A program made the position numbers and the translations under genes. DNA of 31,754 bases from a virus (taxonomy: Duplodnaviria > Heunggongvirae > Uroviricota > Caudoviricetes). The notes under the pieces were generated by a model, which made no database searches, had not been told where the DNA came from, and was given only the letters and a program-made list of their open reading frames with translations. This document shows, piece by piece, positions 4,226 to 28,223 of this stretch. Within the stretch, counting starts at the first letter, position 1. Every line of letters starts with the position of its first letter. The stretch lies in the IMG/VR virus record IMGVR_UViG_3300037313_000650. One strand, written 5' to 3'.

Positions 4226-4516
4226 ATGGATAAGATATTTATTGTAATAGACATCAATCTTGCAATAACACAAGATGTATCTATTCCTTGTGTATTTGGT
4301 AATATTGAAGATGCATTTAAATATGCATTAGATGATGTTATTAAGAAAGATGGAAGAGATATTAAAGTACATGGTTGTGAGATAGAAGGATATATTTCTA
4401 CTACAGATAGGATTAGTAATAATAACTCTCTTGGTTCTAATTATGGAGTGAGTTATAAGTCTTATTATGGTGGTTATCCTTGTGCTAGAATGATAATGGA
4501 AAGAAAGGTTAATTAA
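4226..4516 (+). CDS. hypothetical protein
   Basis: 96-aa ORF with A-rich start region. Confidence 0.8.
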   Translation: MDKIFIVIDINLAITQDVSIPCVFGNIEDAFKYALDDVIKKDGRDIKVHGCEIEGYISTTDRISNNNSLGSNYGVSYKSYYGGYPCARMIMERKVN

Positions 4517-4556
4517 TACTCTTAAATATTTACTAAACAATTAAACTAACAAGTAT

Positions 4557-4796
4557 ATGAAATCTATTCAAATCATTCTATTGTTGTGTATCCATATAGG
4601 AGATGATTTTCCTAAGACTATGGATAAAGATGCTATACAGAAGAATCTCAATATTCTTATTGAGCAGGATTTAATAATGCAAGATTTTAGTAGTAATGTA
4701 ATAGCTGGACATAGTTATAAAGTAACAGAAAGAGGTAAAACGCTGATTTGTTCATTATATAATACCTTTCTTGATAAGGTGTGGGATTTAAAATAA
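4557..4796 (+). CDS. hypothetical protein, possible winged-helix
   Basis: 79 aa; LNILIEQDLI...YKVTERGK resembles the wHTH wing motif. Confidence 0.7.
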   Translation: MKSIQIILLLCIHIGDDFPKTMDKDAIQKNLNILIEQDLIMQDFSSNVIAGHSYKVTERGKTLICSLYNTFLDKVWDLK

Positions 4797-13835: not shown

Positions 13836-14002
13836 TGAAAATTGGAAATAAAGTAATTTGCACTCTGCACCCTGATTGGGGTGCTGGAGTGCTTTCTTGT
13901 ATCTCTGAAGGTAAAGGATTCATCTATTGGGGTGAATTTGGAGATATGAGAGACAGAAAGTATGAATTTTGTGATTTATCATTAATAAAAATTGTTATAT
14001 GA
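13835..14002 (+). CDS. small hypothetical protein, SH3-like pattern (55 aa)
   Basis: Read manually: MKIGNKVICTLHPDWGAGVL...; TAATG and ATGA coupled. Confidence 0.7.
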   Translation: MKIGNKVICTLHPDWGAGVLSCISEGKGFIYWGEFGDMRDRKYEFCDLSLIKIVI

Positions 14003-14313
14003 CAATACATGATTGTAAAGAAGGTGTAGTGTACTATTACATACTACAAAGTAGTAGATGGTTAGGAAGGTTTGTTAAAATTGATAGAAGTCAATTATGG
14101 AATGAAGCTAATCTTGATATTAAGGGTGAGCATCTTTATATATATAATACGGGTTCTACAAATCTTTGTGGTACAAATAAAGTATTAGAAGTAAGAGAAG
14201 CTACACCTGAAGAGGTAGAACATTATGAACAATGTGTTGCAGCAAAGAAATATGTAGAATACAAACCTTCTATTAAATCACCTCAAATAATTAATAGTTA
14301 TGACATTTTCTGA
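13999..14313 (+). CDS. YEIF-tail protein 1 (RxAT/CIxAxK family)
   Basis: VREATPEEVEHYEQCVAAKK; ends PQIINSYDIF. Confidence 0.85.
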   Translation: MTIHDCKEGVVYYYILQSSRWLGRFVKIDRSQLWNEANLDIKGEHLYIYNTGSTNLCGTNKVLEVREATPEEVEHYEQCVAAKKYVEYKPSIKSPQIINSYDIF

Positions 14314-14596
14314 TTTAGTAATAGGAGGTGTATATTATGTTCATTGTCCTAAGTATGGGTTTAAATGGATAGTTGAACGTGGTGAAAATCTATTTAACCG
14401 ATATGGTATAGACTTAACAATAAGTAATGACCCTCGTCTTGAAAAAAGTATGGGTTCATTCGTTGAGGATTACGAATGGGAGATTCGTGAGGCTACAAAA
14501 GAAGAAAGAGAATGGTTATGGAAATCTATAAATGCAGATAATATAGTACCAAGAGAAAGTATTAATCCTATAAATAATAATTATGAAATATACTAA
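14300..14596 (+). CDS. YEIF-tail protein 2 (RxAT family)
   Basis: IREATKEEREWLWKSINA; ends PINNNYEIY. Confidence 0.85.
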   Translation: MTFSDLVIGGVYYVHCPKYGFKWIVERGENLFNRYGIDLTISNDPRLEKSMGSFVEDYEWEIREATKEEREWLWKSINADNIVPRESINPINNNYEIY

Positions 14597-14873
14597 TTAT
14601 TCTGATCTAATAGCAGGGCAATACTATGTATTCTATTTTAATAAGAGTGATAATACAGAGTTAAGAGTTATATTTAAATATGGTGGGCGTGAAAATGAGA
14701 AAAGGCACTATATTGATGCTGGTGATAAATACAAATTTGATACATGTTGTAGATGCAGTGGTTATTTTGTTCCTGCTTCTCCTGAAGATATTGAATGGTT
14801 AGATGATTGTATTGCAGCAGGTAAAACTGTTCCCAGACCTACAAAAGTTAATAATAATTATGAAATATTTTAA
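14583..14873 (+). CDS. YEIF-tail protein 3 (RxAT family)
   Basis: VPASPEDIEWLDDCIAAGK; ends PTKVNNNYEIF. Confidence 0.85.
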   Translation: MKYTNYSDLIAGQYYVFYFNKSDNTELRVIFKYGGRENEKRHYIDAGDKYKFDTCCRCSGYFVPASPEDIEWLDDCIAAGKTVPRPTKVNNNYEIF

Positions 14874-14882
14874 TTTTAATAT

Positions 14883-15179
14883 ATGAAATTATCAGAATGT
14901 ATTGAAGGGGTCAGTTATGTATTTGAAAGTGGTAATTGGCCTTATTTAGGTATATATAAAGGTATTAGAGATGATGAAATTATTACAAATTGCTGTTTAA
15001 ATCTTGAAACAGCAGAATTTTTCAAAGAAGAAACACGCTTAATGGATTTGGAATCTCTTGAAAATGTTAGAATACCAACTGACGAAGAGGTTCAATGGTT
15101 TAATGCATGTATTGCAGCTAATAAGGCGGTAAATAAAGCAGATATACCAAAAATCAATAACAACTACGAAATATTTTAA
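14883..15179 (+). CDS. YEIF-tail protein 4 (RxAT family)
   Basis: VRIPTDEEVQWFNACIAANK; ends PKINNNYEIF. Confidence 0.85.
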   Translation: MKLSECIEGVSYVFESGNWPYLGIYKGIRDDEIITNCCLNLETAEFFKEETRLMDLESLENVRIPTDEEVQWFNACIAANKAVNKADIPKINNNYEIF

Positions 15180-15237
15180 ATTTTACAAACTATTATAAAC
15201 TTTTTCTTTATTTTTAAACTTTAAAATTCAAACTAAA

Positions 15238-15702
15238 ATGAGTACAAAGAAAGCAACTGGAAAAGAGACATTAGCATTGACAACAACTACAGAAGTTCCT
15301 GAAGTGATTAAAGCATTGCAAGCACAAATTGATGAATTGAAAGATATTGAAACTTCACAGTGGAAAACAAGTGGTAATCTGGATGGTTTTGGTAGTATTA
15401 AGGAAGAAAAGAAGATTGAGAACTTGATTCGTGCTTATTCTTCTGTTAAAGGTAGAGCTAACGCTTATGAAGATGCAGCAGATGATTTAGGTATTACTAC
15501 CTATCCTCAGTTTAATATCAATGGTGGTACAGTAGAAGATTGGAAGCATGATATTCAATTGAGAATTGCTATTGTCAATCATAAAGAAAAGCTGGATAAA
15601 CTGAAAGATTTTAAAGCTAAAGCAGAACGTTTCCTTTCTGAGGAAGATCAGAAGAAGATGTTATTCAATGAAATGTCTGCATTTCTTGGATTAGGTAAAT
15701 AA
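15238..15702 (+). CDS. coiled-coil hypothetical protein
   Basis: 154 aa, heptad-rich, own terminator. Confidence 0.85.
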   Translation: MSTKKATGKETLALTTTTEVPEVIKALQAQIDELKDIETSQWKTSGNLDGFGSIKEEKKIENLIRAYSSVKGRANAYEDAADDLGITTYPQFNINGGTVEDWKHDIQLRIAIVNHKEKLDKLKDFKAKAERFLSEEDQKKMLFNEMSAFLGLGK

Positions 15703-15720
15703 GTCTCTCTTTTATTGCTT

Positions 15721-15752
15721 AAAGTCCCTGCCTTTTAGGTGGGGACTTTTTT
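15721..15752 (+). terminator. intrinsic terminator
   Basis: aaagtccctgcct...aggtggggacttt plus T-run. Confidence 0.8.
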
Positions 15753-15772
15753 AATTATTTAAATCTGTATAT

Positions 15773-16381
15773 ATGAAACAGATAACTCTTATACTAACTG
15801 TATTAACATTATTAGCCTGTAAAAAGGAAGATGTATCTCCAGAAACAAGTATCATTGAAGTGGAATCTAATTATAAAACAGTTATATATCTAAACTTTGA
15901 AGGAAAGAATATTGTAAATACTGATTGGAATAGTATATACAATATCCAGCAAGTAAATTGTGCTCCTTCCAGTTTTACTAATAATCAGAAACAACAGATA
16001 TATGACAGTTTGATTAAATATCTACAGACTTTCCACATTAGACTTACTGTAAGAAGAGATATTTACGAAAATGCTAATCAAAAAGCAGAAATAGTAGTTA
16101 CCCCTACAAGCTATTGGGCAAAAATAGATGGTATGGGTATCGCAGCAGTAAATTCTCTCACTTATAATATCCCTGCTTTTGTATTTAGCGATGTATCAAA
16201 CAACAATATCCGTAATACAGCCCTTGCAATTGCACATGAAGTAGGACATATTGTAGGACTTAATCATACGAAAACAAATAATTCATTCTATAATAGTTCT
16301 TTCATGGGATATCCCTATCTTAGCTCAAATCCCATATGGACAGAAGAAGACAAACAAATCATTAACCAAAATCTACAATAA
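15773..16381 (+). CDS. lipoprotein zinc metallopeptidase (metzincin/matrixin-like)
   Basis: Lipobox LLA-C then KKED; HEVGHIVGLNH (HExxHxxGxxH); downstream SFMGYP Met-turn. Confidence 0.85.
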   Translation: MKQITLILTVLTLLACKKEDVSPETSIIEVESNYKTVIYLNFEGKNIVNTDWNSIYNIQQVNCAPSSFTNNQKQQIYDSLIKYLQTFHIRLTVRRDIYENANQKAEIVVTPTSYWAKIDGMGIAAVNSLTYNIPAFVFSDVSNNNIRNTALAIAHEVGHIVGLNHTKTNNSFYNSSFMGYPYLSSNPIWTEEDKQIINQNLQ

Positions 16382-16629
16382 TGAATAAGAAATACAACAG
16401 TATTGAAGAAATTATAGGTATAGTCATTAAGTCTGGAAGAGATGATTATAAGGTTATTAAAAATGAAGACAATGAAGACGAATTTGGTCTTATTAATCTT
16501 AAAGTTGGTAATAAATATTTTAATGCATCATATAAATTACTCTATTTTAATAAGAAGTTAGAGCAAGGAATATGGAAAGTAGTAACTGAACCCAAACCCG
16601 AAATCAATAATACCTACGAAATATTCTAA
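16381..16629 (+). CDS. YEIF-tail protein 5 (G/D-x-WK[IV][VI] family)
   Basis: EQGIWKVV; ends PEINNTYEIF. Confidence 0.8.
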   Translation: MNKKYNSIEEIIGIVIKSGRDDYKVIKNEDNEDEFGLINLKVGNKYFNASYKLLYFNKKLEQGIWKVVTEPKPEINNTYEIF

Positions 16630-16811
16630 TGAAAAAAGTAATCAAGATAATGTCCCTACATGGAGAATACTATAGTGTTGAACCAATCATCTTCAGTAGT
16701 GCAAGTGTACACTTTGAAGATATAACTGGTATAAAACGTATAGTTGGTATAGCTGACATAATTGCTATTACATTAACAGAAAAAGATATTAACAATGAAA
16801 AAATTCATTAA
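16629..16811 (+). CDS. hypothetical protein
   Basis: 60 aa, TAATG coupled. Confidence 0.65.
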   Translation: MKKVIKIMSLHGEYYSVEPIIFSSASVHFEDITGIKRIVGIADIIAITLTEKDINNEKIH

Positions 16812-17007
16812 CAAGTTCTTCAAAGACTTTTGTTGGCATTCATGGGATTATTATAATCCATACAACAGAACCTGTACTTTATGTAATGAACATCAAGTAC
16901 AATTTCATAATACTTATGTTTCTAATGGTATGGTAATTCATGTAGACGAATGGGAAACAATGAATAAAACTACTAAAAATGAAAGATTTAAACCTGAATT
17001 GGATTAA
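16795..17007 (+). CDS. small Zn-finger-like protein
   Basis: CWHSW...RTCTLC pattern. Confidence 0.7.
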   Translation: MKKFINKFFKDFCWHSWDYYNPYNRTCTLCNEHQVQFHNTYVSNGMVIHVDEWETMNKTTKNERFKPELD

Positions 17008-17524
17008 ACTCGGTCATACTGGCTGTAATTTTGCATCCATATTTGCTAAAAATCCAGAATGCGTAGGTTGGAAAAGAATAATCAACCCTCTAGGTTTCTC
17101 AATACCAGAGGGTTGTTTCATTTTATCCCTTATTTTTCCAGATAGAGACATTAATTTTGTTCGTAATTGGGCATTAAACAATGGGTTCTTTGAAGAACAG
17201 GTAGCCGAAGGTCTTACTGGACTTAGATTAAAAGTTCCAGAAGGTATCTCTTGGGTACAGTATTTTGGTCCTGATAGTCATGTAAAAACCAGACAAGCAC
17301 CTATGCCTGAATTGTTAATGTGTGTAAAACTACCAGCTAAATACTACTGGAAGGTAGGATTTAAAGGTATATTACACCTTGCTCATGGAGCTATAGATTG
17401 TATTCGTAGTAAGGTGGTAGATAATGTTTGGGATACATCATTTAAACGTACAGCTAAAATATTAGGACATAAACCAACCATTACTGAGGCTGCAAAGACA
17501 ACTTTTAAAAATAAACAATTATGA
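16979..17524 (+). CDS. hypothetical protein
   Basis: 181 aa; GCNFA motif; no firm family. Confidence 0.8.
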   Translation: MKDLNLNWIKLGHTGCNFASIFAKNPECVGWKRIINPLGFSIPEGCFILSLIFPDRDINFVRNWALNNGFFEEQVAEGLTGLRLKVPEGISWVQYFGPDSHVKTRQAPMPELLMCVKLPAKYYWKVGFKGILHLAHGAIDCIRSKVVDNVWDTSFKRTAKILGHKPTITEAAKTTFKNKQL

Positions 17525-17769
17525 AATATTCTAAAGATAGACCTACTGAATTAGTAGGTAAGAAATTTATATATAGTGAAAATGAATATAGGATTATAGA
17601 TTATGATGATAAGAGTAACAAATTTCTTACAAAATATCTAAATGGTATACAAAAAGGTGAAATATTTGAAATGAGTGCTGATCATTATACATTTGGATAT
17701 TTCAATGATGATACTTGGAAAATAATTGAAGAAGAACCTCAAATAAATAATAACTATGATATATTTTGA
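17521..17769 (+). CDS. YEIF-tail protein 6 (WK[IV] family)
   Basis: DDTWKII; ends PQINNNYDIF. Confidence 0.8.
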   Translation: MKYSKDRPTELVGKKFIYSENEYRIIDYDDKSNKFLTKYLNGIQKGEIFEMSADHYTFGYFNDDTWKIIEEEPQINNNYDIF

Positions 17770-18130
17770 TATGATACACGGTAATTATTACTATTACCGC
17801 AATAATAAAAATGAAAATAGTTTAGGCTGGATAATAAAATTTAATGAAATTAAGACTTGTTCTGCTTATTCTGAGGGTCAATCTATTTTTAATTTAGCCT
17901 CTGTTAATCTGGATAATTATGGTAGCTTTTATACAAATGATGAAGGGGGAGATAGTAGATTTCATGATATAAAATCTGATGAATATTATGATCTAAGACC
18001 TGCTACTCCTGATGAAATTAGATATTTGGATGAATGCATAGAGAACGGAAAGAAGGTATTACCTATTCCAATCTTCACTTCTCCAGTTGAAGGTACAATT
18101 AAAATAATTAATGATTATGACATTTTTTGA
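17756..18130 (+). CDS. YEIF-tail protein 7 (RxAT family)
   Basis: LRPATPDEIRYLDECIENGK; ends KIINDYDIF. Confidence 0.85.
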   Translation: MIYFDMIHGNYYYYRNNKNENSLGWIIKFNEIKTCSAYSEGQSIFNLASVNLDNYGSFYTNDEGGDSRFHDIKSDEYYDLRPATPDEIRYLDECIENGKKVLPIPIFTSPVEGTIKIINDYDIF

Positions 18131-18464
18131 CATGGTTTATGGTAATTATTATTACTATAAGAATGATGAAAGTACAATAGCTTACATATTGAAATTCAAT
18201 GAGATACAACCATATAAAAACTACAATTCTTTATATGTTTTAGCTGCTGCTAGTATCAAAGGTTATGATACTTTTATGGATAAGGAAGAAGGTGGTAGTG
18301 ATAGATTTTTGGATATTGGACCGAAGAAAAACTATACATTAAGACCAGCCACTATAAAAGAAATAATGTGGCTTGATGAGTGTATAAAAGAACAAAAATG
18401 GATAAATTATAATCCATCCAAATTACCTGAAAATCAGATAAATAATAATTATGAAATCTACTAA
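18117..18464 (+). CDS. YEIF-tail protein 8 (RxAT family; close paralog of protein 7)
   Basis: MTFFDMVYGNYYYY vs MIYFDMIHGNYYYY; both have EGGxxRFxDI; ends QINNNYEIY. Confidence 0.85.
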   Translation: MTFFDMVYGNYYYYKNDESTIAYILKFNEIQPYKNYNSLYVLAAASIKGYDTFMDKEEGGSDRFLDIGPKKNYTLRPATIKEIMWLDECIKEQKWINYNPSKLPENQINNNYEIY

Positions 18465-18678
18465 ATACAAAGTTGGAGATTATGTAAGAGCTTTAACTAC
18501 TGGTTTTTATGATGATATTGTAGTACCAAATAAGATGTATAAGGTTGCAAGACTAGAGAATGATGGTAGCGGAGTGCATATAGAAATAGATAACTTTTTA
18601 ACTTTATATATGTATAATAGTGAAGTAGAATTAGCTAACAGTCCACAAGAAATAATTGATTCGTATGAAATATACTAA
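18451..18678 (+). CDS. YEIF-tail protein 9 (SH3/KOW-like)
   Basis: KYKVGDYVR...EVEL pattern; ends PQEIIDSYEIY. Confidence 0.8.
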   Translation: MKSTKYKVGDYVRALTTGFYDDIVVPNKMYKVARLENDGSGVHIEIDNFLTLYMYNSEVELANSPQEIIDSYEIY

Positions 18679-18895
18679 AGAAAATATAATCAGTTTAGTA
18701 GTTCAAGCTGGAGAAGGTAAAAATACTTCAAAGTATACAATAGTTGCTCCAATAGATAACACAGACTTTGCACTATGTGATTGTGATGGTGATACATACG
18801 GGAATTATCATTTTTCAGAATTTAAAAAATATATTGAAGAAGGTACGTGGAAAATTGTTGAGCCTGTAATCATTAATTCATACGAAATTTATTAA
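18665..18895 (+). CDS. YEIF-tail protein 10 (WK[IV] family)
   Basis: EEGTWKIV; ends PVIINSYEIY; start at overlapping ATG 18665. Confidence 0.8.
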   Translation: MKYTKENIISLVVQAGEGKNTSKYTIVAPIDNTDFALCDCDGDTYGNYHFSEFKKYIEEGTWKIVEPVIINSYEIY

Positions 18896-18897
18896 TC

Positions 18898-19134
18898 ATG
18901 AGTGAAGAACGCTACATTGGTTACGGACTTCTCCTTGATTTACCTTCAGGAAGAGTAGGATTAGAATTAACACTTAACCAGCTATCAGAACTGTATAAAG
19001 AAGCTGTAGAAAATAATGGTAAGGTGAAGGTTCTAGTCCTACCTGTTAAACCTGAAAATGTAACAGAGTGGAGAACTCATTCAGTTAAGATAGGAGAAAG
19101 CAAATATAAACAGAAACTTATAAAAGAGCATTAA
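18898..19134 (+). CDS. hypothetical protein
   Basis: 78-aa ORF. Confidence 0.75.
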   Translation: MSEERYIGYGLLLDLPSGRVGLELTLNQLSELYKEAVENNGKVKVLVLPVKPENVTEWRTHSVKIGESKYKQKLIKEH

Positions 19135-19135
19135 C

Positions 19136-19540
19136 ATGAAATCAAAGATTGAAATTATTGATGAGACTGTAGCTTATTATAGTGAAGACCCTAATAGAAG
19201 GGCAGTAGTAATGACTACATGTAAGTACCGCACTCCAGATGGTAGAATGTGTGCATTTGGTAGGTGTATGACTGAAGAAAGTTTAGAACTATATGGTGAT
19301 TTTCAAGGTGGTGTTATGAGACTTTTACTTAAATGTTATGACCGTCCACTTTCAGATGTGATTCTCCTAACAACAGTTATTAATACACCATTAAAAGAAG
19401 AATATCAAGGTCATGAGCTTACTTTTTGGACAAATATACAACGCTTACATGATGATTTTGATTACTGGAATTCAGATGGATTAACTGAAGAAGGAAAGGA
19501 ATACGTAGAAGTTATGAAAAATAAATATAAAGGGTTATAA
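19136..19540 (+). CDS. conserved phage protein (CKYRTPDGRMCAFG motif)
   Basis: CxYRxxdGxxCAxG motif recalled from many phage hypotheticals. Confidence 0.85.
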   Translation: MKSKIEIIDETVAYYSEDPNRRAVVMTTCKYRTPDGRMCAFGRCMTEESLELYGDFQGGVMRLLLKCYDRPLSDVILLTTVINTPLKEEYQGHELTFWTNIQRLHDDFDYWNSDGLTEEGKEYVEVMKNKYKGL

Positions 19541-19567
19541 AGAAACATTAACAAAAATAAATTCAAA

Positions 19568-21703
19568 ATGAAACAATTACAGCAAAAGATTCAAGACCAA
19601 CTAAATAAAATGACTTCAACTGGTAAGCTCTTTAGAAGTAGTATATCAGGTTCTGAAGTATGGAACATCTATATACAATCTTTTGAAAATGATCCGATCT
19701 TTCGTGACCCCAACAGTTCTACACATAATTGTAACCTGTGTAATAATTTCATCAGACGATATGGTAATATTGTAGCTGTATCTCCTGAAAATGAAATTAT
19801 GACTATTTGGGATGTAGAAATTGAAGGTGAGTTTGCACCAGTAGTTAAAGCTATCTCAACTAAATTGAAATCAGCTAAGATTCAGGATGTATTTTTTGAG
19901 ACTTATGCTGAACTTAATAGTTTGAACTATGAGAAGTGTAAAAAAACAAATACTGTATTCAGATTGGGTATAGATAAAAATCATAAACAGTATACCAAAG
20001 AAGAAGCTGATAAATTTGGTGTAGTAGAAGAGGGAGAAATCAGAACATTTCATCATCTTCATGTGGATATACCTGCTGCTTTTGTAGATATGAGTGGTGC
20101 TTCAGTAGAAGCTCTTATGGGTAGCTACAGAGATGCTAAGAATGTATTTCAAAGAGCAATGGAAGAGATAAGCATAGATACGTTACAGCTTGTTAGAGAT
20201 TTAATAAATCAAGGTAGTTTACTGGATGGTACAACACATCTATACAAAGTAGAGCAATTCATTCCATTTAAACAACAATATAGTGAGATTGGTAAAAAAG
20301 ATAGAGATAATTGGTGTTGGGCAACTTCTTATAAATTACCTATTGCTAAGTTTAAGAATGAATTGATTGGCGTATTATGTTCTGAACTTTCTGAAGGTAA
20401 GGAACTTAACGAAGCTTGTCAGGCATGGAATAAGCGTGTTGATCCTGCTAATTACATGAAAGCTACTGCACCCATCACCAAAAAGCAAATAGCAGAAGCT
20501 GAAAAATTCGTAGAAGAGAATGGATATGTAGAATCATTTGATAGAAGATTTGCTACAATTGATGATATTAAGGTGAGTGAAATACTTCATGCTAATGTTG
20601 GAGATGGTAAAATTAAGAAAGTCTCTATTTTTGATAACGTAAAGTCTACCTCTACCAGACATAAGAGAAGTGAATTTGATAAAGTGGAAGAAGTGAGTAT
20701 AGAAAAGTTCATGAAAGATATTCTTCCTTCATGTACTTCTATAGAGGCTTTCCTCACTTCTCAACATGAGGGTAATATGGTATCTCTCACTACAGCTAAC
20801 GACAAGAACAGCAAACCTATCTTTAAATGGGATAACAACTATTCTTGGACCTATAATGGTAACTTAGCTGGTAAATCACAGATTAAGCAAGCTGTAAAGG
20901 ATGCTGGTGGTAATGTGGAAGGTGTATTGAATTTTCGTTTAGCTTGGAATGAATCTGGTGAAGATAATTCTGATTTGGACTTGTGGGCTATCGAACCTAA
21001 TGGTGTTAGAATTGGTTTCAGCACACAATACAGAAAAGGTAGACCGGGATATGATCGTAGTTCTATGTCTGGTCAATTAGATGTAGATATTATCAGCCCT
21101 TCTGGTAAATTAGCTGTTGAGAATATTACATGGACTGACTTTAACAAGATGAAAGATGGAGTATATATAGTATATGTAAATCCATATCATGCATCAAATT
21201 CAAAAGGTTTTAAGTTAGAGATTGAATTTGATGGTGAAACATATGTTTATAGTTATGATCGCCCTGTACCTGTAGTATCAAATGTACATATAGCTGAAGT
21301 CACTCTAAAAGATAGGAAGTTTAGTATCAGACACTTACTTCCTGTAGTTGAAGGTACTGGTGCTCAGAAAGAAATCTATGGCTTGGAATCTAACCAATTC
21401 CATAAGGTGAATCTAGTATGTTTGTCTCCTAATCATTGGGAAGGTAACAATGTAGGAAATAAGCATTATTTCTTCATGCTGGAAGGTGCTAAATGTCCTA
21501 TTTCAATTCGTTCTTTCCACAATGAGAACCTGATTCCTGAACTTGCAGCACATAGAAAAGTGTTAGAAGTTCTAGGAGCTACTCATACTATTAAACCTAA
21601 TGGTAAGCAATTATCAGGTTTAGGTTTTAACAGTACTGTAAAGGATGAATTAGTAGTTAGATTAAAAGGTAGTCATTCAAGAGTAATAAAAATCAAATTC
21701 TAA
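19568..21703 (+). CDS. large conserved phage protein with C-terminal YfaP/DUF2135-like domain
   Basis: 711 aa; N-terminal HNCNLCNNFIRRYG (CxxC); C-terminal DLDLWAIEPNG and GQLDVD...AVENITW match the DUF2135-type pattern. Confidence 0.8.
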   Translation: MKQLQQKIQDQLNKMTSTGKLFRSSISGSEVWNIYIQSFENDPIFRDPNSSTHNCNLCNNFIRRYGNIVAVSPENEIMTIWDVEIEGEFAPVVKAISTKLKSAKIQDVFFETYAELNSLNYEKCKKTNTVFRLGIDKNHKQYTKEEADKFGVVEEGEIRTFHHLHVDIPAAFVDMSGASVEALMGSYRDAKNVFQRAMEEISIDTLQLVRDLINQGSLLDGTTHLYKVEQFIPFKQQYSEIGKKDRDNWCWATSYKLPIAKFKNELIGVLCSELSEGKELNEACQAWNKRVDPANYMKATAPITKKQIAEAEKFVEENGYVESFDRRFATIDDIKVSEILHANVGDGKIKKVSIFDNVKSTSTRHKRSEFDKVEEVSIEKFMKDILPSCTSIEAFLTSQHEGNMVSLTTANDKNSKPIFKWDNNYSWTYNGNLAGKSQIKQAVKDAGGNVEGVLNFRLAWNESGEDNSDLDLWAIEPNGVRIGFSTQYRKGRPGYDRSSMSGQLDVDIISPSGKLAVENITWTDFNKMKDGVYIVYVNPYHASNSKGFKLEIEFDGETYVYSYDRPVPVVSNVHIAEVTLKDRKFSIRHLLPVVEGTGAQKEIYGLESNQFHKVNLVCLSPNHWEGNNVGNKHYFFMLEGAKCPISIRSFHNENLIPELAAHRKVLEVLGATHTIKPNGKQLSGLGFNSTVKDELVVRLKGSHSRVIKIKF

Positions 21704-21918
21704 TGGGAAAAATTGTTTCAATTACAGAAAAAACACCAGTATCAGCAACATTACCTGATGGTAACTATGTAGGTATATGGGGTGGTAACATCATTGAACT
21801 AAAATATAATAATAAAACTTACGAATTAGAAACAGAAGTAGGTGTTAGGGGTATAGGTTATCATGTTGTAGTGATTGTTAAAGATGGTGAAGCCACATTT
21901 CAAGAACTAAAAAATTAA
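21703..21918 (+). CDS. hypothetical protein
   Basis: 71 aa, TAATG coupled. Confidence 0.75.
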   Translation: MGKIVSITEKTPVSATLPDGNYVGIWGGNIIELKYNNKTYELETEVGVRGIGYHVVVIVKDGEATFQELKN

Positions 21919-21943
21919 ATTCTAATTTTAAAATCAAAACAAA

Positions 21944-22330
21944 ATGGACAATTTCAAAAAAGCCAGCCAATTAAAGCTAAGATTTGTAACAAACAAAGGT
22001 GTATTATCAGTTGAACAATTGTGGGACTTAACCCCAACTCAATTAGCTACATTAGTTCGTTCTATTAAGGAAGAATTAAAAAGTGCTAATGTGGATGATG
22101 AACTATCCTTCCTGAGCGATAGTATCCCAACAAAAGGAGATATTGAAAATCAACTCCGTTTTGAGATTGCAAAAGAAGTATACCTAGCTAAGAAAGCTGA
22201 AGCTGAAGAATTGAGAGATGCTAAAGCTAAGAAAGAACACAATCAGAAGATTCTTGCTCTGATTCAAGAGAAGAAGGAAGGTGAACTGAAGAATAAAAGT
22301 ATTGAAGAATTAGAAGCACTTCTTAAATAA
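21944..22330 (+). CDS. conserved phage coiled-coil protein (KLRF..KG.LSVEQLWDL)
   Basis: 128 aa; family recalled as a neighbour of the 711-aa protein type. Confidence 0.85.
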   Translation: MDNFKKASQLKLRFVTNKGVLSVEQLWDLTPTQLATLVRSIKEELKSANVDDELSFLSDSIPTKGDIENQLRFEIAKEVYLAKKAEAEELRDAKAKKEHNQKILALIQEKKEGELKNKSIEELEALLK

Positions 22331-22339
22331 TTGATTATC

Positions 22340-22370
22340 AGGGTGGTGTAGAAATACATCACCCTTTTTT
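22340..22370 (+). terminator. intrinsic terminator
   Basis: agggtggtgta-GAAA-tacatcaccct-ttttt. Confidence 0.9.
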
Positions 22371-22382
22371 AAACTTTTTACA

Positions 22383-22661
22383 ATGGAAACAGCAATAGAA
22401 ATAGCAATTAAATATGCTGAAGATAATATAAAAGCTTGTAAAGATGGTACTATGATGAGTTTTGGTGAAGCTATTTGGGGTGAAAATGCTTGGATAGAAA
22501 TAAGAAGATACCTAACAGGTTTATTACCTACAGAAAGATTTAAACTTGAAAAAGCCTTCGAAGCTGGAAGTCACTGGAATGAAAAGTATAATAAATATAC
22601 TGATGATTCTATAAAAGTTCCTGATTTTAAAAAATATTACGAAGAAACTTATGCAAAATAA
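22383..22661 (+). CDS. hypothetical protein
   Basis: 92-aa ORF. Confidence 0.8.
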   Translation: METAIEIAIKYAEDNIKACKDGTMMSFGEAIWGENAWIEIRRYLTGLLPTERFKLEKAFEAGSHWNEKYNKYTDDSIKVPDFKKYYEETYAK

Positions 22662-23106
22662 ATCTATACTCCTTATAGGTCAGGCTTTACCTAGAGTGAA
22701 ACAACACGTACCATATGATAGTACTATGTTATATGAATGGTTGGAAGAATGCGGTGTATCTATGGAACAGGCACAAGATATATTTGATTTTGATGCTGTT
22801 TATGATAAATTCCCCGGCTATAATGTAAAAGGTGGTCACGCTACACCAACCTATGAACAGATGTTAGAATATTATAATAGATCATTGAGGGAGAAGATCA
22901 CTAAATATAACAAAATAATCATATTAGGAAATGTTGCAAAAATGTTTTTACTTTCTACCAATTCTCTATTGGGAAAGCACATACTGTATTTAATTCACCC
23001 TTCCAGACTAAATTTCAATCTGTATCAGAGGAACAAAGAAACAATTATTTCTAATCTGAAACAGTTTATTCATGAAGACATTTACCATCCACATCACCTT
23101 CAGTAA
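22651..23106 (+). CDS. uracil-DNA glycosylase-like superfamily protein
   Basis: ILLIGQAL (motif A-like), IIILGNVA, LIHPS (motif B) as in family 4/5-type UDG folds. Confidence 0.7.
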   Translation: MQNKSILLIGQALPRVKQHVPYDSTMLYEWLEECGVSMEQAQDIFDFDAVYDKFPGYNVKGGHATPTYEQMLEYYNRSLREKITKYNKIIILGNVAKMFLLSTNSLLGKHILYLIHPSRLNFNLYQRNKETIISNLKQFIHEDIYHPHHLQ

Positions 23107-23242
23107 GGGGAATCAGTTAATCTTCTACAATGTACAAGCTTCTACAGAAGAAGAAGCTATTCAATTAGTAGTGAAACTAATTAAAGGAAAACAAATCTAC
23201 AAAATTTCTGCTGAAGAGGATAAAAAAGTATTGGAAGTATAA
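23072..23242 (+). CDS. small hypothetical protein (56 aa)
   Basis: Read manually: MKTFTIHITF...VQASTEEEAIQLV. Confidence 0.65.
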   Translation: MKTFTIHITFSKGNQLIFYNVQASTEEEAIQLVVKLIKGKQIYKISAEEDKKVLEV

Positions 23243-23288
23243 AAACTATTTATTAACATTGCAAAACTAAAACCGCTATTTAGAAACT

Positions 23289-23465
23289 ATGAGTAAGTAT
23301 TCCGAACCACAAGTTGTAAGAGAACTAGTACAAAAACAAGACATTGAGATTAAAGGTAAGATGATTATTATTGATAACAACAAAGGAGATATTGGTATCA
23401 ACTCTAAAGGAAAGATTGACTTCCTGACAAGATACTGCGGTTACTTTATTACTATAGCTAAGTAA
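23289..23465 (+). CDS. small hypothetical protein (58 aa)
   Basis: Read manually: MSKYSEPQVVREL...GKIDFLTRYCGYFITIAK. Confidence 0.7.
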   Translation: MSKYSEPQVVRELVQKQDIEIKGKMIIIDNNKGDIGINSKGKIDFLTRYCGYFITIAK

Positions 23466-23511
23466 CCTCCATTGGTGCTTACGGGGATTTGTATTTACTT
23501 ATCCCCTTTTA

Positions 23512-23543
23512 TTTGGCAATTTCAAGAAAATATCCTATATTTA
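23512..23543 (+). promoter_or_regulatory. Bacteroidota-type promoter for tmRNA
   Basis: TTTG-N20-TATATTTA, ending 11 nt before the tmRNA 5' end. Confidence 0.7.
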
Positions 23544-23554
23544 AATCTTAATAT

Positions 23555-24052
23555 GGGGGTGTAAGGAATTGATTCACAGTAATAGGTAAATACACAGGTA
23601 AGAGTATCTAGTCCTCGCAATGCTAGGTAATAATAAATGCAGAAACTGAGCTTTCTGATATGACTTTCGATAGCTTAATGGCTTTCGTAGGTGCTGAAAA
23701 AGTAGCTGCTTAGTAGCCCTACTATTCAGTGGAGATGTAGCTAAGGCTTTTCCTCCCTTGGGGTTTGATTTAACCTTGCAACAGAATAAATCAGTAGAGG
23801 GACTCCCTTAACAGTTAAGGCTGACCTTAAGCACTCTACTTAAAATACTATTGTATATAGGGGGTGAAGCAATAGAAACCAGAGGGGAAACTGTAAAGTC
23901 ACCGGGATTGTTGTAAGTATATGTCCAAATGATAACAGAACTTTCAAAACTACGGTGCAGGTATTAAATATTAGTTTAATATCAGTACTAAACCTGTAAG
24001 TGCGTATTTATTGTATTCTGGAGAAGACAGGGCTTCGATGCCCTCACCTCCA
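23555..24052 (+). ncRNA. ssrA: tmRNA
   Basis: Acceptor stem GGGGGTG/CACCTCC-A with G3:U Ala determinant; GGAATTGA after the 5' stem; helix 2 (taaatac/gtattta, acaggt/acctgt); ACTAAACCTGTA; T-arm agggc-ttcgat-gccct; resume context AATAAAT-GCA; tag ORF 23639-23713 AETELSDMTFDSLMAFVGAEKVAA*. Confidence 0.95.
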
Positions 24053-24080
24053 CAATTTTTTCCTACACATCCACAAATAT

Positions 24081-24111
24081 TTTACTATATTTAGTATAGT
24101 TTGTATATTTG
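24081..24111 (+). promoter_or_regulatory. Bacteroidota-type promoter, probably leaderless endonuclease transcript
   Basis: TTTA-N19-TATATTTG ending 4 nt before the ATG at 24116. Confidence 0.55.
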
Positions 24112-24115
24112 TGGT

Positions 24116-24667
24116 ATGAAGAAATATAAATATAAGAGAAAGTTGGTAGAAATAGAATGTGATTATTGTGGGAACATTCATACCAAACCTGAGAGTGAAT
24201 ATAATAGGAATAAAATAAAAGGGAGAAAAAATTACTGTAGCAGAAGTTGCTGCGGTAAGGTAACAATTAAACAAAATATTCCTAAAGAGAGTATAGTATG
24301 GGAACATCTTAAAGGTATTAATAGAAGAGATAAATATACAGGATTTAGAGAGCATATAAGAAGAATTCATAATAGACATAAGAAAATTGAATTGACCTTA
24401 GATGATTTACTGGAGCAATGGAATAAGCAAAATGGTAAATGTATTTATAGTGGTGTAACTTTAACAAATCCTATTAGTACAAGAAATTATTATAATAATC
24501 CTATATGTACAGCTTCTTTAGACAGAGTTGATAGTTCAAAAGGTTATACTAAAGATAATATTCAATTCATAAGTTATTCTATGAATTATATGAAAAATAA
24601 CATGACTCATGAACAAACTATTGACTTGTGTAAAATAATTTGTAACTTTTGGGATAAAAAAGATTAA
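24116..24667 (+). CDS. freestanding HNH-superfamily (beta-beta-alpha-metal) homing endonuclease
   Basis: N-terminal CDYC...YCSRSC Zn finger; C-terminal QNGKCIYSG...SLDRVDSSKGYTKDNIQFISYSMNYMKN, the DRxD HNH variant. Confidence 0.8.
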   Translation: MKKYKYKRKLVEIECDYCGNIHTKPESEYNRNKIKGRKNYCSRSCCGKVTIKQNIPKESIVWEHLKGINRRDKYTGFREHIRRIHNRHKKIELTLDDLLEQWNKQNGKCIYSGVTLTNPISTRNYYNNPICTASLDRVDSSKGYTKDNIQFISYSMNYMKNNMTHEQTIDLCKIICNFWDKKD

Positions 24668-24675
24668 ATGATATA

Positions 24676-24830
24676 AAAATAGGAAGTGTGCCGTAGGTAT
24701 TATTAACGTTTATCGGGAAGCCTACAAGTGCTTAATATCCTTCCTATTTTAAATTATTAGGTATAGATGGTGTATGGAGTTTGATTAACCCACTATGGAA
24801 TGATTAGTAAACAGCCTCACACTATACCTA
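24676..24830. other. two adjacent long imperfect hairpins in an ORF-free gap
   Basis: aaaataggaag/cttcctatttt with inner gtaggt/gcctac; taggtatag/ctataccta with inner gtgt/acac and gttt/aaac. Confidence 0.55.
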
Positions 24831-24902
24831 AAGCTTATCAGATTTTGCCATTTGATAGCTAACCAGCCGCTTTAGTGCTGAAAATTCACATGAGAGAAAG
24901 TT

Positions 24903-24934
24903 AACCCCTTGATAGGAATATCAGGGGGTTTTTT
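24903..24934 (+). terminator. intrinsic terminator
   Basis: aaccccttgata-GGAA-tatcagggggtt plus T-run. Confidence 0.85.
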
Positions 24935-24972
24935 AATTTTGTTAAACATTTTCTAATTATAAATCAAACAAA

Positions 24973-25326
24973 ATGGCAAGAAAGAACAAAACTATCAAAT
25001 TCTACTCAGATGAAGAAAAAGATATCATCAAAAAAGCAGTAGAAAAGAACAACTATCCAAGTGCTCTTGCTGGAGCTAGGGATTTAGCCCCTAAACTAAA
25101 CAGGCCCGAAGGGGGATTAGCTTTAGTAGTAGCAAGAATGATGAAGAAAATAGGTCATCCTACAGCAAAAAATAAATCCAGAGCAATGAGTAAAAAAGCT
25201 ATTGAACCGGATAGTAGAAAATTGAATTCTAAAAAGGCTAACTTACCTAAAAAGAATCAATTATCTTTCCCACTGAATAGTGTAGATTTCGAAATTAAAA
25301 ACGGTAGAATTTGGATTAGTTTTTAG
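24973..25326 (+). CDS. basic hypothetical protein, possible HTH DNA-binding
   Basis: Lys/Arg-rich; YSDEEKDIIKK...ARDLAPKLNR Myb/HTH-like pattern; own terminator. Confidence 0.8.
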   Translation: MARKNKTIKFYSDEEKDIIKKAVEKNNYPSALAGARDLAPKLNRPEGGLALVVARMMKKIGHPTAKNKSRAMSKKAIEPDSRKLNSKKANLPKKNQLSFPLNSVDFEIKNGRIWISF

Positions 25327-25336
25327 TCCATTTTAG

Positions 25337-25365
25337 AGAAGTCCCTCAATTGGGACTTCTTTTTT
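25337..25365 (+). terminator. intrinsic terminator
   Basis: agaagtccc-tcaatt-gggacttct-ttttt. Confidence 0.85.
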
Positions 25366-25390
25366 AATTCCATAACTAAATAAAAAAAAC

Positions 25391-25804
25391 ATGAAAACAA
25401 TTGAAACTATCCTTAAGGATTACAAGAGTGAAACAATAGATGGTAGGGATTTAAGTAGACTTGTACAATTTTTAACTGAAGAACAAGCTTCTAGTATTGG
25501 TATTAACTTTAAGGATGAATATAAAGGTAAGCATGAACCTATACCATTTACAAAGGAAAATGTATTGAAACAATTAGAAAGTGATGTAGAATTTGGATTT
25601 GAAAAAGCTCTGAATCAAAGAGGTATATCTGCTGGATTGATGTATGATGTAGTAAAAATGTGGAATTGGATATTAGAAGAAGGGTTAGAAGACTTTGATG
25701 ATTATGCTTATTATGGATTACCCTTATTTAAAGCCACTGCTGTAAAATACAACTTTAACAATCCTATAGGAGAAGATTCAGGAAGTGAATCTGAATATAG
25801 CTGA
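25391..25804 (+). CDS. conserved phage protein (FGFEKALNQRGISA motif)
   Basis: 137 aa; motif recalled from uncharacterised phage proteins. Confidence 0.85.
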   Translation: MKTIETILKDYKSETIDGRDLSRLVQFLTEEQASSIGINFKDEYKGKHEPIPFTKENVLKQLESDVEFGFEKALNQRGISAGLMYDVVKMWNWILEEGLEDFDDYAYYGLPLFKATAVKYNFNNPIGEDSGSESEYS

Positions 25805-25854
25805 ATATAACAAGAATTATTTTCTTATATTTGTCATACTTAAAAACAATTCTT

Positions 25855-26058
25855 ATGCTTAGATGGACTATTATTTTTCTTGTACTTGCAATCATTTCTG
25901 CAATTTTTGCTTGGGGCAATATAGCTTCTACCTCTGTAGAAGATATTGCTAAAATAACATTCTACGCCTCTTTTATTTTATTTGTTCTATCTCTTTTTGC
26001 TGGATGTAGGAGATTTTCTGATGAAACCGATAAACTTGATGAAGATTGGGGGTTTTAA
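25855..26058 (+). CDS. DUF1328 / UPF0391 family small membrane protein
   Basis: MLRWTIIFLVLAIISAIF.WG.IA.....IAKITF...FILFVLSL matches the family; TATATTTG promoter element at 25826-25833. Confidence 0.85.
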   Translation: MLRWTIIFLVLAIISAIFAWGNIASTSVEDIAKITFYASFILFVLSLFAGCRRFSDETDKLDEDWGF

Positions 26059-26076
26059 CCACTTAATATTTAAACT

Positions 26077-26133
26077 ATGAGAAAATATTGGATTCCCGGC
26101 GATCCTTCAGAGGACGAAGGAAGTGAAGACTAA
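26077..26133 (+). CDS. candidate micropeptide MRKYWIPGDPSEDEGSED
   Basis: 18 codons after a tttaaactATG start region typical of this window. Confidence 0.4.
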   Translation: MRKYWIPGDPSEDEGSED

Positions 26134-26160
26134 CTATTTACCAAACAAAAACTAACAATT

Positions 26161-26340
26161 ATGTACATTATCTTTCAAGACAAACGAACACTTGAGTGTT
26201 TTTCTGTATCTCAAAATGCATTAGACTTTCCTGAGTTCTTAGAATTTGAACAAAGGGGATTAGTAAAGAGAGTATTTGTAGGTAAAAAACGAGATTGTGA
26301 TAAGTATCTTGAAAATGAAGTTGAGGTAGAAATGATTTAA
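26161..26340 (+). CDS. small hypothetical protein (59 aa)
   Basis: Read manually: MYIIFQDKRTLECF...; terminator follows at ~26350-26374. Confidence 0.7.
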   Translation: MYIIFQDKRTLECFSVSQNALDFPEFLEFEQRGLVKRVFVGKKRDCDKYLENEVEVEMI

Positions 26341-26385
26341 TTAATATACAAAGGGGGCTAACAACCCCCTTTTAAATTTATTATT

Positions 26386-26775
26386 ATGGTATCAAAAATA
26401 ACAGCAGGTATTAAAGTTTCAGTTGAAACTTTCTACCAACTAGATTATTCAAATCCAATGCAGTCTGAATTTATGTTTGCTTACCGTATTACTATTGAAA
26501 ATCTAACTGGACATGATATGAAATTATTAAGCAGACATTGGTTTATCTTTGATTCTGAAATTGGTAATAAAAGAGAAGTAAAAGGTGAAGGTGTAGTTGG
26601 TATGACTCCTGTTATTGAATCTGGAAAGGATTTTCAGTATGTATCAGGAGTAAATTTACATTCTGAAATGGGTACAATGAATGGGTGTTACACTTTTCAA
26701 AATCAATCTACGAAGGATTTAGTAGAGGTTAAAGTACCAAAGTTCGAACTTATTGTTCCATTTAAACATAATTAA
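26386..26775 (+). CDS. apaG: ApaG (DUF525) protein
   Basis: ITAGIKVSV...FAYRITIEN...LLSRHWFI...VKGEGVVG..PVI..G..FQYVSG..L.SE.GTM.G.Y: full ApaG signature. Confidence 0.93.
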   Translation: MVSKITAGIKVSVETFYQLDYSNPMQSEFMFAYRITIENLTGHDMKLLSRHWFIFDSEIGNKREVKGEGVVGMTPVIESGKDFQYVSGVNLHSEMGTMNGCYTFQNQSTKDLVEVKVPKFELIVPFKHN

Positions 26776-26777
26776 TT

Positions 26778-27068
26778 ATGAAAGAATTAATATTACAAAA
26801 TATAAAAACTTCAGGTAAGAATACTGCTGTATGGTGTGAGAACCTTGAAGAGTGGGAGCAAGTACTAAAAATAATAGGAAATCCACAGGAACTTACTAAA
26901 GCTAATTATAATAGTTATAGAAATGAATATCCATCCATAAATGTTAATGATGGACGTTATGGTCATAGAGGATGGTATATAAATAATTCTTATGATGTAT
27001 ATCTAGCAAGTGAATTTATCAAGGCAAATACAGGACCACAAATTATTAATTCATATGAAATTTATTGA
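26778..27068 (+). CDS. YEIF-tail protein 11
   Basis: TAVWCENLEEWEQVL body, unrelated to the RxAT family; ends PQIINSYEIY. Confidence 0.8.
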   Translation: MKELILQNIKTSGKNTAVWCENLEEWEQVLKIIGNPQELTKANYNSYRNEYPSINVNDGRYGHRGWYINNSYDVYLASEFIKANTGPQIINSYEIY

Positions 27069-27070
27069 TT

Positions 27071-27310
27071 ATGCTTCCAAAATACGGATATATTAAAGAT
27101 ATGACACCAGAGCAAACTAAACAACTAATAGAGCTACTGGAAAAAGAAGGATATAAAAAGAATTCAGATAATTATGATTGGGGAGAAGGTAAGTTAGCTT
27201 GGTATAATGATAAATTTTATAGTCATATTCTAGACGATTCTAAACAACCATTATACAAATTTGAAGATGTAATCCAAAGTGAAATTATTAATAATTACGA
27301 AATATATTAA
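27071..27310 (+). CDS. YEIF-tail protein 12
   Basis: LIELLEKEGY body; ends EIINNYEIY. Confidence 0.8.
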   Translation: MLPKYGYIKDMTPEQTKQLIELLEKEGYKKNSDNYDWGEGKLAWYNDKFYSHILDDSKQPLYKFEDVIQSEIINNYEIY

Positions 27311-27314
27311 CTTT

Positions 27315-28223
27315 ATGATTATCGGAAATAGAAAACATGCAAAACCTTTTTTGAAATGGGCAGGGGGTAAGACACAGTTGATTCCAGCGATTAAGTCTAC
27401 AATACCAAATGAGCTACACAATATCCCATTTACTTATGTAGAACCGTTTATAGGAAGTGGTGCAGTATTTTTTTGGTTTCTAAGACACTTTCCAAACATA
27501 CAGAAGGCAGTTATTAATGATGTAAACAAAGATTTAATTGATACTTACCTGACTATAAAACTTTATCCCAATGATTTAGTGAAAGAATTAAAAGAATTGG
27601 AAAAGGAATACCAAAGCCTTGATTCACAAGAAAAGCAAAAGGAGTTATTTTTAAATAAAAGAGCACTTTTTAACTCGAGAAAAAACAGCATAGTTATACA
27701 AAGCTCTTTAATGATTTTTCTAAATAGAACTTGCTTCAATGGGCTTTATAGGGTAAATAGTAAAAACCAATTTAATGTTCCATTTGGCAGGTATACGAAT
27801 CCTACTATTTGTGATACGGAAAATATTTATAATGTTAGTGTAGCTTTGGAGAACGTGACAATTCTCAACCAAGACTATTCTTCTACATTACCAGAAATTG
27901 AAGGTGATACTTTCTTTTATTTCGACCCTCCTTATAAACCTCTTAGTCAAACAGCATCATTTAACTCATATGCAAAGGATATTTTTGGTGATAGTGAGCA
28001 GCAACGCCTAAAAGTTTTCTGTGATGAGCTTGATAGAAGAGGAATCAACTGGCTTCTTAGTAACTCAGACCCTAAGAATACAGACCCTAGCAATCACTTC
28101 TTTGATGACTTATATAACCATTATTACATTAATAGGGTACGGGCTAAAAGAACAATAAACTCGGATGCATCTAAAAGAGGAGATATATTTGAATTATTAA
28201 TCCACAATTATAAAATATATTAA
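27315..28223 (+). CDS. dam: Dam-family (D12 class) DNA N6-adenine methyltransferase
   Basis: KPFLKWAGGK, YVEPFIGSGAV, NDVN, NRTCFNGLYRVN..FNVPFG.Y, catalytic YFDPPY; start moved to 27315. Confidence 0.92.
   Translation: MIIGNRKHAKPFLKWAGGKTQLIPAIKSTIPNELHNIPFTYVEPFIGSGAVFFWFLRHFPNIQKAVINDVNKDLIDTYLTIKLYPNDLVKELKELEKEYQSLDSQEKQKELFLNKRALFNSRKNSIVIQSSLMIFLNRTCFNGLYRVNSKNQFNVPFGRYTNPTICDTENIYNVSVALENVTILNQDYSSTLPEIEGDTFFYFDPPYKPLSQTASFNSYAKDIFGDSEQQRLKVFCDELDRRGINWLLSNSDPKNTDPSNHFFDDLYNHYYINRVRAKRTINSDASKRGDIFELLIHNYKIY

Follow-up and report, generated by a model that had tools for sequence, protein, structure and literature searches.

Why should a dozen small proteins of one phage end in almost the same eight residues? 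The question is raised by the window, as we call the whole stretch of 31,754 nucleotides (nt) analyzed here, from the viral record IMGVR_UViG_3300037313_000650 (Caudoviricetes), in which the initial annotation had reported twelve open reading frames (ORFs) with a common C-terminal octapeptide. The window is part of a complete genome (G000) of 164,315 nt, which carries direct terminal repeats; its terminase has a match of about 26% to crAss-like phages, giant genes typical of the crAss-like group are present, and from these crAss-like relatives and the A-rich starts we infer a host among Bacteroidota. The tail proved to mark arrays of small proteins, here called clients, which in crAss-like and T4-like phages are tightly linked to one conserved gene, here called the hub (15238..15702, plus strand). 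This tag-and-hub module is real, widespread and apparently undescribed: in agreement with the initial annotation, which knew of no matching motif, no description of such a motif or plug-in arrangement was found in the literature searched, where subscription journals are thinly covered.

The tail and the level of its selection

The twelve ORF ends, their peptides and their stop coordinates were all recovered as annotated, and so was a proline one to four residues before the tail in ten of the twelve ORFs, the exceptions being the ORFs that end at 18130 and 27310. Throughout the 164,315 nt the strict octapeptide pattern occurs at exactly these twelve ORF ends and never inside an ORF. The conserved unit, however, is shorter than the annotated octapeptide: it consists of the last four residues, aromatic-x-aliphatic-aromatic (Y-x-I-Y/F), and the preceding four form a genome-specific dialect. 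Across 245 distinct tagged proteins (98 BLAST clusters) the tetrapeptide reads Tyr (89%) or Phe (9%), x, Ile (93%), and Tyr (73%), Phe (22%) or Trp (4%). The loose core [YF]x[ILV][FYW]-stop was seen 13 times among 205 gene ends, with 0.3-0.4 occurrences expected (P about 2e-15); this pattern was set after the data had been seen, but it recurs in independent genomes. In four genomes (146,000 residues) all 58 occurrences of the local motif are terminal and none is internal, and the core is found at 0 of 77 and 0 of 71 ORF ends in two cultured Bacteroidota phages, counted in regions where the hub has no match.

At hub loci, the tail is kept in 165 of 169 homologues of the client bodies, three exceptions ending in FPIH or YEIC, and searches of a large database with tail-less bodies retrieved homologues that were tailed in 14 of 14 cases, mostly of one subfamily. 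What precedes the core varies from genome to genome (NNYEIF, PQYEIY, TNYEIY, NQFPIY, ELFPIY and NEFSIF), and the dialects track the genome more than the body: identity over the last six residues is 0.70 for unrelated bodies at the same locus, 0.61 for homologous bodies across lineages and 0.51 for the background. At 29-40% hub identity the dialects are shifted, with five cases of xE[IVL]W, three of F[DE]VF[LN] and two of YLIFN; four of the seven such distant hubs with DNA have arrays (xE[IVL]W, F[DE]VF[LN], YLIFN and YxIY, respectively) and three have no clear array. The free carboxylate on a terminal aromatic residue, which the initial annotation had envisaged, is not universal, since two of these dialects (YLIFN and F[DE]VF[LN]) append one residue.

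Synonymous divergence (pS) in the last four codons is 0.6-1.0, equal to that of unrelated sequence, and non-synonymous divergence (pN) is 0.00-0.22; the latter is low partly by construction, as the tails were chosen on the peptide, so that the independent evidence is the saturated pS only. Given this free synonymous variation, and given that the next gene starts within no more than 28 of the 217 Tyr tails, selection acts on the peptide and its terminal position and not on a DNA site. Taken together, the saturated pS, the strictly terminal occurrence, the retention in homologues and the negative hubless regions support a motif that is portable, terminal and maintained as a peptide, as initially proposed.

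The window alone might suggest a DNA or RNA feature, either a side effect of AT-rich initiation in an overlapping next gene or a recombination site: six of its twelve tails hold the next gene's ATG (TAT GAA contains ATG), and an ordinary junction at 17508-17534 reads KINNYEIF-stop in an unused frame. Against this stand not only the freely varying synonymous sites and the few overlaps but also the use of TAC, which provides no ATG, in 73 of the Tyr tails, compared with a TAC share of about 20% of the Tyr codons in the window genome, and two T4-like arrays, where 0 of 11 and 0 of 12 tails hold the next start. This explanation is largely refuted already, and we give it hardly any credence. Start overlap may explain the easy birth of tails at AT-rich junctions, but not their retention; the junction at 17508-17534 illustrates a way in which new tails could arise from AT-rich start regions.

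The composition of the tail also bears on a likeness to the beta-clamp motif QL[SD]LF, which has the same five-residue spacing, hydrophobic positions 2, 4 and 5 and often a C-terminal location (PMC11139829). Were the tail a variant of this motif ([NQ]-Y-x-I-[YF] for Q-L-[SD]-L-F), the clients would be loaded on the host sliding clamp. One dialect reads QYEIY, replacement of Gln by Asn affects binding only modestly (PMC11139829), and a phage clamp gene of the PF02768 type was not found in five genomes; a search for gp45-type clamps is uninformative, its controls having been silent. However, position 4 of natural clamp motifs is always Leu or Met, and Ile there weakens binding, while position 5 is Phe, Leu or Ile, with weaker binding when Trp stands there (PMC11139829), whereas position 4 of the 245 tails is Ile (93%), Val (5%) or Leu (2%) and position 5 is mostly Tyr, with some Trp. 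Position 1, where the clamp motif has Gln but tolerates Asn, is Asn in 49% of the tails, Gln in 13% and another residue in 38%, which points neither way. The tail further differs in having Tyr at position 2, replication proteins of these phages carry canonical QLSLF or QLELF, and the hub is left unexplained; clamp binding by the clients therefore seems to us very unlikely. The canonical ends are found on replication proteins at 160441-162507 (minus strand) of G000 and in the loci L030 (7304-9190) and L034 (13775-15394), and on their account the crAss-like phages studied here probably do use the host clamp.

Linkage of tagged arrays to the hub gene

Fifty loci with close hub relatives were fetched, representing 28 lineages including the window (L043, L067 and L068, which the script had split, are one lineage). 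A tagged ORF lies within 3 kb of the hub in all 24 lineages that have at least 900 nt of upstream flank, and 21 have at least three tagged ORFs, the chance rate of the core at a gene end being 0.15-0.2% per gene; about 31 tagged genes were counted on one T4-like contig. A pattern scan blind to the neighbors found arrays in two further phage lineages, each adjoining a homologue of 15238-15702, and in two more pattern scans arrays were confined to hub-bearing genomes, the lone apparent exception overlapping the end of a hub contig by an exact 141 nt. Of all genes in the window genome, the hub (51-57% identical) is the only one that BLASTP matched in each of three other hub-bearing contigs, G002, G003 and G004, which are 28-90% complete; a T4-type portal is present in G002 and G004, and none was found in G000 and G003. 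Hub arrays also occur on contigs filed under metagenome-assembled genomes of Micavibrio (L081) and Neisseriaceae (L082); these are probably mis-binned phage contigs and hence no evidence on host range, and the phages bearing the module probably infect Bacteroidota.

The hub itself is a conserved protein of 154 aa, modelled as a four-helix protein whose small head is conserved (pLDDT 81). It is a distant member of phrog_2574 (profile match with E 1.5e-8 over residues 69-151; HMM E 1e-8 to 1e-10), and its predicted fold matches gp239 of Bacillus phage Hakuna and gp230 of CAM003 from this family (Foldseek TM about 0.63). These homologues, which have no assigned function, differ from the hub in having no tagged neighbors; in both Bacillus phage genomes examined they directly follow a gene for a protein of about 400 aa with a TYSGKL motif (Hakuna, L115 10942-12159; CAM003, L116 11263-12417), a candidate partner for the hub in tail-less lineages. 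In total, 609 relatives were found at E<=1e-10 among 50%-identity representatives, and another search gave 141 close relatives. A fold search against the PDB returned only generic helical bundles and uL29-like hairpins (Z 6.5 or less), which does not imply a new fold; tblastn with three hub queries gave no match in 50,697 GenBank phages, and no informative family emerged for either hub or clients from Pfam, PHROG and PADLOC.

In four genomes the initiation region is A-richer for the hub than for the clients, and the hub is usually followed by a terminator-like hairpin, which in the window lies immediately 3' of the gene (15721..15749, plus strand; top of the terminator scan) and was recognized by inspection in L033, L034, L037, L038, L039 and L109; for these two reasons, higher expression of the hub than of the clients is suggested. 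A scan for sigma-70 promoters did no better than the shuffled background.

Several hub loci have further features. In L110 a hub homologue (4314-4772) lies in a prophage-like replication module beside the host dnaA gene and ends in DLPF, resembling an SSB tail, and its DnaB-like neighbor ends in ELPF. The 431-aa protein directly after the hub in L063 (10571-11866) has a client-family domain and no tail, and Band 7/SPFH genes lie at most two genes from the hub in two distant loci (L040 10688-11602; L143 751-1596). ThiF/E1-like, JAB-like, E2-like and ubiquitin-like genes were seen by eye near the hub in one lineage only (L030 2559-6254; L037 5226-8743). An adaptor role in phage ubiquitin-like conjugation (E1-E2-JAB) was dropped, as E1/ThiF is present in 0 of 5 tag-bearing genomes, the complete G000 included.

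As the hub accompanies the tail in unrelated phages and differs where the tail differs, the simplest account is that the hub reads the tail, acting as a scaffold for which the clients are interchangeable heads directed at host targets. Given the genetic linkage, we put this account at slightly better than even. The common partner postulated in the initial annotation is thereby retained, but its likeliest identity, judged from the linkage, is the adjacent phage hub gene, which had been overlooked.

The reader could instead be a host protease. Terminal hydrophobic or aromatic residues that follow a disordered linker are characteristic of C-terminal degrons, and the tail resembles them; its reader might be Lon, Clp or a tail-specific protease, of which the hub would be an adaptor, inhibitor or timer, and the clients would then be short-lived early proteins or would drag bound host proteins into degradation. 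The terminal position (58 occurrences compared with 0 internal ones, one residue being added in distant dialects), the occurrence in two unrelated virion types, which suits a host reader, and a ClpS gene in one hub locus (L040) agree with such a role. Yet Y-x-I-Y is nearly invariant within a genome (pN 0.00-0.22), more strictly than most degrons, the dialects are phage-specific, linkage to a phage gene is near-obligate and only 13 of about 205 genes carry the tail, so that we regard a degron as unlikely.

The client proteins

By HMM, six of the twelve tagged genes of the window, all on the plus strand, belong to one RxAT family, and the set therefore comprises about five families and not the twelve unrelated proteins of the initial annotation. 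The RxAT members are 13999..14313 (104 aa, ending in IINSYDIF), 14300..14596 (98 aa, INNNYEIY) and 14583..14873 (96 aa, VNNNYEIF), the latter two starting within the preceding tail, followed by 14883..15179 (98 aa, INNNYEIF), 17756..18130 (119-124 aa, IINDYDIF) and 18111..18464 (115-117 aa, INNNYEIY). Two proteins form the WK[IV] family (16381..16629, 82 aa, INNTYEIF; 18665..18895, 76 aa, IINSYEIY), and 17521..17769 (82 aa, INNNYDIF) is WK[IV]-like with no BLAST link to these two. A 75-aa protein with an SH3/KOW-like sequence pattern and a weak match to phrog_23745 (18451..18678, IIDSYEIY) and two singletons (26778..27068, 96 aa, IINSYEIY; 27071..27310, 79 aa, IINNYEIY) complete the set; the likely starts are ATG 18665 instead of TTG 18656 and ATG 27071 instead of TTG 27065. 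The end of a Dam-like methylase (27315..28223, plus strand), LIHNYKIY, fits the four-residue core, but its place as a thirteenth member is uncertain, one chance match per genome being not unlikely.

Clients from all loci have 73-102 aa (5th to 75th percentile) and are soluble, a hydrophobic segment being present in 6 of 245. The RxAT client adjoining the hub (14883..15179) is modelled as a barrel and a helix (pLDDT 92; body 90-97) with last residues at 59 and without secondary structure. Its barrel (residues 1-70) resembles Sm/LSm proteins with middling scores (Z 8.5, rmsd 2.4, 67 aligned residues), and the top ranks of the fold search are nearly all Sm-like, with a Foldseek E of just 7e-3. 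In the model, then, this client forms a probably Sm-like barrel, and its tail lies outside that fold. It is unlike the small beta-barrels of Sm, LSm and Hfq in its identity of about 10%, its additional C-terminal helix and its acidic character, and RxAT clients gave no match to the Sm1/Sm2 motifs (Pfam LSM) at E<=1. The client at 14300-14596, searched alone, had no outside homologues.

This fold raises the possibility that the tail joins clients to each other, as a strand added to a beta-sheet, in mixed Sm-like rings or chains. The largest family is Sm/LSm-like in the model, and an SH3/Sm-like first-strand pattern is present in 53% of the clients compared with 14% of other small ORFs. The tail is, however, also carried by a pure coiled coil (L034 9708-9980, with the variant YSIV) and by apparently alpha/beta bodies, the Sm match is only middling and the hub would have no explanation; we consider mutual assembly of clients quite improbable.

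Another property of the clients, their charge, concerns the closest analogue in logic, the capsid-targeting sequence (CTS) of the T4 internal proteins IPI, IPII and IPIII: these are diverse small proteins from variable loci that share a 10-residue terminal signal with one reader (PMC9026906). By this analogy, the tail might direct loading into the capsid, with the hub as adaptor for packaging and the clients injected as internal proteins like IPI-III, and in one T4-like group the array is near the portal and neck genes. But the T4 signal is an N-terminal, cleaved propeptide on proteins described as basic and is confined to T4-like heads, whereas the tail is C-terminal on mostly acidic proteins (median pI 5.6; 4% above 9), occurs in crAss-like and T4-like phages, whose heads differ, and is linked to a dedicated gene that does not look structural. 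Moreover, the arrays are far from the head genes in G000, G001 and G002, and the client N-termini share no CTS-like 10-residue consensus. Capsid loading appears to us decidedly unlikely. Proteins with a CTS-like start (MKTYVKSFEAINE) are encoded close to a tagged array in two T4-like loci (L033 14677-15582; L038 13368-14255).

Among the tagged genes of the window are also a reprolysin-like metallopeptidase gene with a lipoprotein-like start (15773-16381) and an ApaG-domain gene (26386-26775). A 711-aa protein without assigned function (19568-21703) has matches in 541 GenBank phage records, the best being an uncultured 462-kb phage and Cellulophaga phi4:1.

A proposed scaffold with interchangeable heads

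If the hub reads the tail, the module would be a mobile one of two parts, one conserved helical hub of about 150 aa and a variable set of soluble clients of 70-105 aa, up to about 31. The tail would dock at a conserved site of the hub, which may be produced in larger amounts, given its A-rich initiation region and its own terminator, and which probably oligomerizes via its long helices, while the variable heads would bind different host targets early in infection. A phage could then gain a new specificity by adding the tail to any small domain, and the hub might sequester, localize, degrade or package its clients. Poxvirus ankyrin proteins with a C-terminal PRANC/F-box and eukaryotic F-box adaptors likewise combine many variable heads with a shared docking element and one scaffold. 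The likeness would be one of logic: the tag shows no kinship to these systems in sequence or fold, it is a four-residue motif and not a domain, and ThiF is lacking in five genomes.

Several points weigh against a hub that reads the tail. The case is one of genetic linkage in uncultured phages, the sampled loci are mostly hub-centred, and the same linkage would be expected if hub and clients shared a pathway via a host protein. Dialect differences could follow different hosts, and the hub tree is poorly resolved, groups the dialects only partly and is too weak for a test of co-evolution. Hub relatives without arrays occur in Bacillus Herelleviridae, in the prophage-like module L110 and, doubtfully, in L107 and L108, so the hub fold has a role independent of the tail. 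P0069, a 240-aa database protein in which a tagged ORF runs into a hub, speaks for the reading if it is a natural fusion, but it may result from a sequencing or assembly frameshift. A complex prediction with two hub copies and a 30-residue tail scored under the mark, in a setup unlike the calibration and with controls that were not folded, and counts neither for nor against docking.

In its full form, the reading is of a horizontally moving adaptor system, in which the hub reads a co-diverging four-residue C-terminal code and up to about 30 interchangeable domains bring host targets, for example defence proteins, to one scaffold; for this we see a little less than an even chance. One peptide and one conserved gene mark 245 distinct proteins in about 50 loci of unrelated phage groups, and since most phage accessory genes are small ORFs with no functional handle, the tail supplies one. 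If the hub does read the tail, phages would have a modular scaffold-adaptor design like that of eukaryotes and their viruses, for which we found no description in phages, and tail and hub would make a small tag-receptor pair that comes in natural dialects. On the full reading, host-takeover or anti-defence proteins, a large and uncharacterized set, could be searched for by their tails. The hub family comprises 609 clusters at 50% identity and extends to Bacillus phages in culture, which are open to work on its basic activity.

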